From Candidatus Eiseniibacteriota bacterium (GTDB lineage Bacteria > Eisenbacteria > RBG-16-71-46 > CAIMUX01 > VGJL01): 64,000 nt of DNA. A program made the position numbers and the translations under genes. This document shows positions 28,553 to 30,580 of the stretch, in pieces (positions within the stretch are counted from its first letter, which is position 1; every line of letters begins with the position of its first letter). The DNA lies in the NCBI GenBank assembly GCA_963792585.1, contig CAWBWI010000006.1, positions 128,001 through 192,000 on the forward strand, read 5' to 3'. The notes beneath the pieces were generated by a model. That model was not told where the DNA came from and made no database searches. It saw nothing but the letters and a program-made list of their open reading frames with translations.

Positions 28553-29561
28553 TCACTTCCGCATGCCGTCCATCCGGCGCATCAAGTCGACGACGCGGCA
28601 GGAGTATCCCCACTCGTTGTCGTACCAGGCGAGGGTCTTCAGATAGGTCCCCCCCACGACACGGGTCATGGCGGCGTCGAAGATCGCCGAGTGCGAGTTC
28701 CCGATCACGTCGCTCGAGACGATCGGCTCGTCCGTGTATTCGATGATCGACTTCATCGGCCCCTCGGCGGCCTTGCGGATCGCCGCGTTGACCTCCTCGA
28801 CCGTGACCGGCTTCTTCATCAGCGTGACCAGATCGACGATCGAGCCGTCGGGCACCGGGACGCGCATGGCGATCCCGTCGAGCTTTCCCTTCAGCGAGGG
28901 CAGAACCTTGCCGACCGCGCGCGCCGCACCGGTCGTCGTCGGGATGATGTTTTCCGCCGCCGCGCGGCTGCGACGGAAATCGGAGTGCGGCACGTCCGCC
29001 AGGCGCTGGTCGTTCGTGTAGGCGTGCACGGTCGTCATGAACCCCTTCTCGATTCCGAAGTTGTCGTGCAGGACCTTCGCGATCGGGGCGAGGCAGTTCG
29101 TGGTGCAGGATGCGTTGGAGACGATGTGGTGCTCGGGTTTGAGGTCCTTGTCGTTGACCCCGATGACGATCGTCGCGTCGATCTCGTCCTTCGCCGGAAC
29201 GGTCAGGATCACGTCGGTCGCGCCGGCCTTGAGATGCTTCTCGAGCGACGCGCGGTCGCGGAACCGTCCCGGTCGCCTCGACGACCAGCGAGACTCCCAT
29301 CTTCTTCCACGGCAGCTCGAGCGGTTCCCTGATCTCCGTCAACATCGATACCTGACGACCGGCGACAGCTTGTCTCCCTCGAGCTTCAGCTCGCCCTTGA
29401 AACGACCCATGACGGTGTCGTACTTCAGGAGATAGGCCAGCGCGTTGTTCGGGGCGATGTCGTTGATCGCCACGATGTCGACGTCCGGCGAGTCGGCGAG
29501 CAAGTCGGAATATCGTGCGGCCGATCCGCCCGAACCCGTTGATGCCAATCCTCATGCTCAT
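28553..29561 (-). CDS. gap: Type I glyceraldehyde-3-phosphate dehydrogenase, canonical copy, at least 3 apparent frameshifts in 5' part
   Basis: [48 protein letters not shown] stitched from ORFs 28521-29570, 29339-29548 and 28553-29212. Confidence 0.92.
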
Positions 29562-29573
29562 CCTCCCCACCCC

Positions 29574-30580
29574 CTAGTTCAGCATCGCGAGCTTCTCGAC
29601 AAGCTCAACGACCCTGTTCGCGTACCCCCAGCCGTTGTCGTACCACGAGATCGTCTTGAGCATGTTGTCGCCCAGGACGAGCGTCGACATCGAATCGAAG
29701 ATCGCGGAGTGGGAGTTGCCGATCACGTCGCTCGAGACGATCGGCTCGGTTGCATACTCGATGATGGTCTTGTAGGTCGACTGGGCGGCGCTCTTGACGA
29801 CCTCGTTGACTTCCTCGGCCGTCACGTTCCGGCTCATCAGGGTCACGAGGTCGATCGTCGAGCCGTCCGGCACCGGTACGTTGACCGCGATCCCGTCCGA
29901 GCTTGCCCGCGAGTTCCGGCAGGATCCGCTCGACCGCCAGCGGCGACCAGGTCGTCGTCGGGATGATGTTCTCGGCCGCCGCCCGGCTGCGCCGCAGGTC
30001 CTCGTGCGGGACGTCGGCCAGCCGCTGGTCGTTCGTGTAGGCGTGAACCGTCGTCATGAACCCCTTCTCGATCCCGAACGCGTCGTTCAGGACCCGGGCG
30101 ATCGGCGCGAGGCATTCGACGTGCAGGATCCCGCGGAGATGATCTTGTGCGGCTCGTCAGGATGTGGTCGTTGACGCCGGTGACGATGACCGCGTCGATC
30201 TCGTCCCGCGGCGGGACGGTCAGGATCACCTTCTTCGCGCCCATCGCGAGGTGCTTCTCGAGCTGGGCGCGATGGCGGTACTTGCCCGTCGCCTCGATCA
30301 CGATGTCGACGCCCAGGGCCTTCCAGTCGACTTCGCCGGGCTCCTTCTTCGTGATCATCTTGATCTGCCGTCCACGGACGTACATCGCGTCCGACTTGAC
30401 GGAGAACGGCTCCGTGAACGCTCCATGAACCGTGTCGAATCGGAGCAGATACTCCAGGGTCTTCGGATCCGCGACGTCGACGATCGCAACGACCTCGATG
30501 TCCGGGTGCGATGCCGTGATGATGCGGAAGACGTTGCGCCCGATCCGCCCAAATCCCATGATCCCCACACGTACGCTCAT
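29574..30580 (-). CDS. GAPDH paralog with non-canonical phosphate sites, about 3 apparent frameshifts
   Basis: [44 protein letters not shown] stitched from ORFs 29843-30580, 29605-30057 and 29574-29873. Confidence 0.88.

Follow-up and report, generated by a model that had tools for sequence, protein, structure and literature searches.

A degenerate paralog of glyceraldehyde 3-phosphate dehydrogenase (GAPDH), hereinafter A, lies directly upstream of a canonical type I gap gene, hereinafter B, in a 64,000-nucleotide stretch of DNA from a Candidatus Eiseniibacteriota bacterium (the window), and the two constitute a real, conserved and apparently undescribed gene pair. We propose, with a probability of roughly 0.6, that A joins B in a mixed GAPDH oligomer, probably of A2B2 composition, as its non-catalytic subunit. 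Few enzymes have been studied as closely as GAPDH, which in bacteria is regarded as a homotetramer; two accounts likewise present the known bacterial enzymes as homotetramers (PMC5385343, PMC10318897). A conserved form with a dead subunit, spread over at least 11 phylum labels, would add a new control of a central metabolic step. No prior description of the pair was found in a targeted search of largely open-access literature.

Features of the A–B locus in the window; residue numbers are those of Geobacillus GAPDH
Feature	Position	Strand	Remark
Gene A, degenerate GAPDH paralog	30580-29574	-	335 aa in intact relatives
Gene B, canonical gap, type I GAPDH	29561-28553	-	all catalytic and phosphate-site residues present
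Trp codon TGG replacing Gly209 (Pi loop), gene A	29949-29947	-	
Asn codon AAC replacing Arg231 (Ps site), gene A	29882-29880	-	
Gly codon GGC replacing Glu314, gene A	29633-29631	-	
Shine-Dalgarno-like GGGAGG, 7 nt 5' of gene A start	30593-30588	-	sequence
12-nt spacer, A stop to first ATG of B; 3' end GGAGG	29573-29562	-	sequence

The residue numbering follows the Geobacillus convention and was mapped via alignment to 1gd1. A sequence-only reading of the locus had described two same-strand gap genes 12 nt apart, the downstream one canonical and the upstream one preserving the NAD motif, Cys149 and His176 alongside altered Trp, Asn and Gly codons; coordinates, spacer and all three codons proved to be as it had them. 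Specifically, A of the window carries the substitutions N6M, G209W, R231N and E314G and retains Cys149, His176, Thr208, Thr179, Asp181, Arg195 and the NAD motif, with a motif reading WYDNGWGY as against WYDNEWGY in B, which possesses Cys149, His176, Thr208-Gly209, Arg231 and Asn313-Glu314. As the GGAGG of the spacer directly abuts the first ATG of B, the second ATG (29555) is the likelier start. No sigma-70-like site emerged from a promoter scan and no terminator-like site was seen on the minus strand between 27900 and 30900. Apart from A and B, no Gp_dh_C gene was found in the source genome (84% complete); pgk is on a different contig. Around the pair, a TPR-repeat protein (30782-32026, plus strand) is encoded upstream of and divergently from A, and an OsmC-family peroxiredoxin (28067-28501, minus strand) follows 51 nt 3' of B on the same strand; we rejected osmC as a member of the unit, it being absent from the recurring neighbors of the pair.

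Both genes of the window are interrupted by three 1-nt indels, near 30149, 30116 and 29901 in A and near 29501, 29363 and 29267 in B. At each of these six sites, Illumina contigs from a strain that is ~96% identical carry the opposite indel, and they leave the Trp, Asn and Gly codons of A unchanged, in both cases in four of four runs. Thus, all six frameshifts are read errors and the three substitutions are real, in agreement with the earlier contention that the nearby indels do not explain them. Contigs from RNA libraries also span both genes, one as a single 4.2-kb piece; however, their flanks are equally deep, such that the contigs are uninformative on transcription and we rejected their coverage as evidence of expression.

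The pair extends well beyond the window. Of 29 loci taken from 40 relatives, 27 have A immediately 5' of B, both in uninterrupted frames, and the A proteins of these relatives share the GxMGFG, W-S/A, NVP and WYDNGWGY motifs; an intact A protein is likewise encoded by a same-family genome labelled Candidatus Eisenbacteria. Across a phylum sample, the pair is present in 23 of 29 same-family or same-order genomes (one being a contig-end fragment) as compared to 1 of 121 others. When species genomes were scanned for codons specifying WYDNGWGY, at least 119 loci were recovered, 80 with long and 39 with short flanks. A canonical gap is directly downstream of A in 80/80 of the long loci among the matches listed, a linkage that the sequence-only reading had set as a test for homologs with NVP and WYDNG, and the start motif of B is visible in 35 of the 39 short ones; on one short Clostridia fragment (L150) no partner gene was seen. 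The long loci bear at least 11 phylum labels, 17 of them being without a label. All 119 of the matches listed are MAGs or uncultured; further searches listed no isolate among their named matches, a minority of those listed, and the best 10 of 274 plasmid records include no A-type protein, the top match showing 50% identity.

Approached from the side of B, a scan of metagenomes for its S-loop motif recovers 79 long loci, of which 59 have an A-type ORF directly upstream, three have the C-terminus of A at the contig edge, 14 lack room for it and three are frameshifted and were left unscored; none of the 79 presents a lone B. The stop and start codons of the two genes overlap by 1 or 4 nt in half of 100 pairs and in 53 of the 59 pairs of this reverse scan. 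No conserved third gene accompanies the pair, the largest flanking family being present at 9 of 104 loci. Among the 50 genomes searched out of the 80 with long loci, 15 have A and B as their only Gp_dh_C matches. At one locus (L188), on a frameshift-ridden contig, the B-type gene is preceded not by A but by another gap of canonical appearance. Further, in one genus A was lost and B kept: one genome (G023, L172) is without a trace of A, and another (G027, L294:5167-5253) preserves a 25-residue C-terminal remnant of A along with B. Hence, B can work without A in that genus and A is not universally essential. Among the 154 B proteins only those of these two genomes have a His at position 42, which may be a compensation for the loss of A, albeit a single event; the two lone-B genomes offer natural controls for B alone.

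Phylogenetic analysis used 140 A, 154 B and 19 other GAPDHs, after dropping 11 A duplicates, 12 B duplicates and one frameshifted B before counting. A forms one clade (support 100 in FastTree and 99 in IQ-TREE with 40 representatives), and A plus B stand apart from the outgroup (95 and 99, respectively, with the same 40 representatives in the latter); B is not resolved as a single clade. This topology indicates an old duplication from which a single A clade descends. The distances within A and within B correlate (rho 0.64) and the nearest neighbor of A is among the top three of B in 109 of 132 pairs, which indicates that the two are inherited together. Gene conversion or pairwise matching left no sign, with the similarity of A to its own B ranking at a median of 51.5 of 132. 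A covariation analysis between A and B (MI-APC; 132 pairs, with an effective number of about 71) returned surface pairs that were scattered and mostly reflected kinship; it was not used.

Nei-Gojobori estimates from 31 non-overlapping close pairs (two of 33 were excluded for saturated dS) give a median dN/dS of 0.10 for A (maximum 0.24) and 0.097 for B, and eight pairs of A lacking Cys149 likewise have a dN/dS of 0.10. These values show that A is under purifying selection and is not a decaying copy. The clade under purifying selection for which the sequence-only reading had asked is therefore present, and the sequence-level outcomes it had named against itself did not occur: the substitutions persist, are not unique to this genome and do not come with a dN/dS near 1.

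According to PMC9287727, the Ps site is formed by Arg195, Arg231 and Thr179, and the Pi site by Ser148, Thr208 and the backbone of 208-210. Arg231 is Asn in 137 of 140 A proteins and Arg in all 154 B proteins; the sole A with Arg231 (L214) has Asn at the Cys149 position. Gly209 is retained in just two of 140, with replacements including Trp (49) and Asn (33), and Asn6 has become Met in 116. Glu314 occurs in none of the 140, a loss that is partly circular as 78 of them were chosen by their WYDNG motif, although it is equally absent from the remaining 62. In contrast to these losses, Ser148 and a Thr/Ser at 150 and 179 are retained in all 140, His176 in 137, Thr/Ser208 in 130, Asn313 in 127, Arg10 in 124 and Arg195 in 121. 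It had been claimed that both phosphate-site signatures are lost: this stands insofar as Arg231 is gone and Gly209 is replaced by a larger residue, but not for Ser148, Thr150 and Thr208, which are kept. Thus, the Ps arginine has been eliminated, and the Pi loop is remodelled with its hydroxyls left in place; the Pi site is altered and not erased.

The nucleophile shows a different pattern, with Cys149 being present in 74 of 140 A proteins and missing in 66, where it is replaced by S, A, N, V, I, P, T or G; this distribution needs at least seven changes on the tree. No A combines Cys149, His176 and Arg231 (0/140). The clade of the window's A is a short, early branch that still has Cys149. We infer from this that alteration of the substrate site probably preceded loss of the nucleophile, with the caveat that the tree has little resolution at the base of the A proteins. 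If this is true, the Cys-retaining A of the window captures the state with the substrate site blocked first, prior to the later and repeated loss of the nucleophile. In the most derived A clade (L181, L182, L189, L197, L216, L231 and L232, with homologs labelled Marinimicrobia, Bacteroidota and Binatia) Arg10 is lost too, as often is Asn313; hence, NAD binding seems to be the last to erode. The natural series from Cys-retaining through Cys-less and NAD-site-eroded to lost would serve to test how homomers become heteromers.

For structural comparisons, stand-ins were taken from intact relatives, P0004 for A and P0005 for B, each of 335 aa. The AlphaFold model of P0004, built from a 55-row alignment (pLDDT 90.7, with the S loop alone being low-confidence), displays the full GAPDH fold, a Rossmann domain plus Gp_dh_C, with a TM of 0.95 to 1gd1. 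Against TIGR01534 (cut-off 367.2 bits) both stand-ins score above the threshold, P0004 with 380 and P0005 with 428.9 bits, and three more distant A proteins score under it (351, 288 and 256). The ArsJ-associated GAPDH model NF033735 gives 325 for A against a cut-off of 450; this shortfall, along with there being no conserved neighboring transporter or third gene, led us to reject A as an ArsJ-associated GAPDH. Annotation pipelines label some A genes as ordinary, second active GAPDHs; however, because the Arg231 and Gly209 features fail, the sequences argue that A should not be filed as an active GAPDH despite passing TIGR01534 in this clade.

Conservation reaches at least 97% in A as well as in B at thirty positions, including Arg194, Arg197, 202, Val232, Pro233, Asp241, Val279, Ser280, Asp282, Asp293 and Trp310, which we take to be tetramer contacts. 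According to PMC5385343, the S loop acts at the R and P axes, and Pro188 of its tip lines the NAD pocket of the R-related subunit. The tip residues Val187-Pro188 are missing from 41 A proteins, of which 40 also have no Cys149, and the tip is retained by B. In late lineages, the R axis is accordingly predicted to join like subunits (A-A and B-B) and the P axis to join A to B. Compared to other GAPDHs, B shows specific changes of its own, namely His50 to Met (143/154), Ser119-Ala120 to Thr-Val (154/154) and Ser48 to Thr; these are possibly adaptations to the partner A.

Based on the above, we posit that A and B are made in about equal amounts and would co-assemble into a mixed oligomer in which B does the catalysis. 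With Arg231 gone and a bulky residue at Gly209, A is predicted to be unable to turn over glyceraldehyde 3-phosphate, even where it has Cys149 as in the window. It would instead modulate B, for which the likeliest means is the binding of NAD(H) or of an anionic metabolite in the altered pocket of A, which would offer the retained His176, Ser148, Thr150, Thr179 and Thr208 together with the new Asn231. The weight we give to co-assembly is divided about equally between such regulatory tuning and, as a fallback, a purely structural role. As the window's A preserves its Cys149, His176, Thr208, Thr179, Asp181, Arg195 and NAD motif, some residual chemistry is possible in this form. A bolder version, which we offer tentatively and at clearly less than even odds, is that many uncultured bacteria run glycolysis and gluconeogenesis with a two-gene heteromeric GAPDH wherein the active site of the dead subunit has become an allosteric pocket, with the form in the window being an early stage that may use Cys149 as a redox switch.

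An alternative that we consider unlikely, albeit the strongest of the competitors, is that A self-oligomerizes as a non-catalytic A4 that works alongside B, whether in sensing a ligand or redox state, as a scaffold or in some moonlighting role. The conserved fold and interface positions fit such a homotetramer as well as they fit a mixed oligomer, and the survival of B after the loss of A in one genus is also compatible with it. There is even a precedent in the trypanosomatids, in which a GAPDH-like protein without activity has been retained for a separate role in the flagellum (PMC4106842). Yet, that protein is poorly conserved and not derived from a neighboring gap, whereas A has the dN/dS of B. 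Moreover, an independent A4 leaves unexplained the fixed gene order and the stop/start overlap (53/59 pairs), as well as why A is never away from B in the 80 long loci listed.

Less probable still is that A, if only in the clade of the window with its retained Cys, works as a dehydrogenase, either non-phosphorylating or with another substrate such as a non-phosphorylated aldehyde or erythrose 4-phosphate. Cys149 is present in 15 of 16 close relatives of the window's A, the near-universal His176 would be available to it, and the fixation of Asn231, as opposed to random replacement, hints that a new pocket was selected for. However, the replacement of Cys149 in 66 of 140 relatives, through at least seven changes and with no rise in dN/dS, argues against a new-substrate enzyme. 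The scores of A on the erythrose-4-phosphate dehydrogenase (E4PDH) models are far below cut-off (332 vs. 530.6 for TIGR01532 and 327 vs. 539 for NF010058), and no pathway gene travels with A. Further, the source genome (84% complete) has PdxS and no PdxJ match, with no need for an E4P dehydrogenase being shown. Consequently, of the options entertained by the sequence-only reading, the pseudo-enzyme subunit is favored and the non-phosphorylating or altered-substrate enzyme is weakened. Finally, the three indels per gene and the deletion of A in one genus might intimate that A is a duplicate in decay or a product of errors in long-read assembly. We give next to no credence to this, given that Illumina contigs are free of the indels and preserve the three codons, that the frames are intact in relatives, that dN/dS is 0.10, and that A is one clade over at least 11 labelled phyla.

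Returning to A as a partner subunit of B, comparisons with known systems help place the pair. Relative to type I phosphorylating GAPDH (GapA, EC 1.2.1.12, TIGR01534; PDB 1gd1, 1hdg), B matches every motif and A shares the fold, length, NAD motif, His176 and S loop, but is without Arg231, Gly209 and Glu314; 66 of the 140 A proteins have no Cys149 either. In yeast isocitrate dehydrogenase IDH1 is the regulatory subunit, which provides an analogy for A tuning B. Yeast IDH1/IDH2, plant PDX1.2 and the trypanosome prozyme are further examples of paralogous non-catalytic subunits and, like PRPSAP, all belong to other enzyme families and to eukaryotes. Our working analogy is mammalian PRPS/PRPSAP, in which a duplicate loses catalysis, stays in the oligomer and controls its assembly or activity (PMC12238573). 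For bacterial GAPDH, we found no case of a paralogous non-catalytic subunit.

Within the GAPDH superfamily itself, there is a likeness to the A2B2 enzyme of chloroplasts (GapA/GapB), with two paralogous subunits, one of them mainly regulatory (PMC11025378). There, GapB regulates via a CP12-like C-terminal extension, as opposed to the A described here, which has no such extension and a degenerate active site; the source genome also yields no match to CP12. TbGAPDHL resembles A in being a GAPDH pseudoenzyme family with an early-branching Bodo member that still has the Cys. However, it is eukaryotic, flagellar and poorly conserved, with no evidence for an origin by duplication of the glycosomal GAPDH (PMC4106842), whereas A is a bacterial protein of strong conservation, encoded in a fixed position next to its sister gene, with the Cys kept in the window. 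Erythrose-4-phosphate dehydrogenase (Epd, TIGR01532) is likewise a GAPDH paralog with altered phosphate sites (PMC12041015); it needs its Cys and serves the PdxB/PdxA/PdxJ route, as against the A family, in which the Cys is dispensable and the score below cut-off.

A few additional GAPDH variants surfaced in the course of these surveys. In a Planctomycetota locus (L046:2590-3612) B itself is degenerate, with Thr151Ala, Gly209Ala and Ala211Pro, in a genome with four Gp_dh_C matches. Several relatives (L158-L170) have an extra, unlinked GAPDH type with an S loop starting HAYTSSQ, and three genomes of one genus have this type only. Elsewhere in the window, a 1905-aa ORF (22312-28029, plus strand) resembles, by eye, a multi-PAS hybrid sensor kinase with receiver and HPt domains, and the segment 34552-37300 (minus strand) codes for the ordinary complement of MoeA, an endonuclease III-like glycosylase and a cyclophilin-type PPIase.
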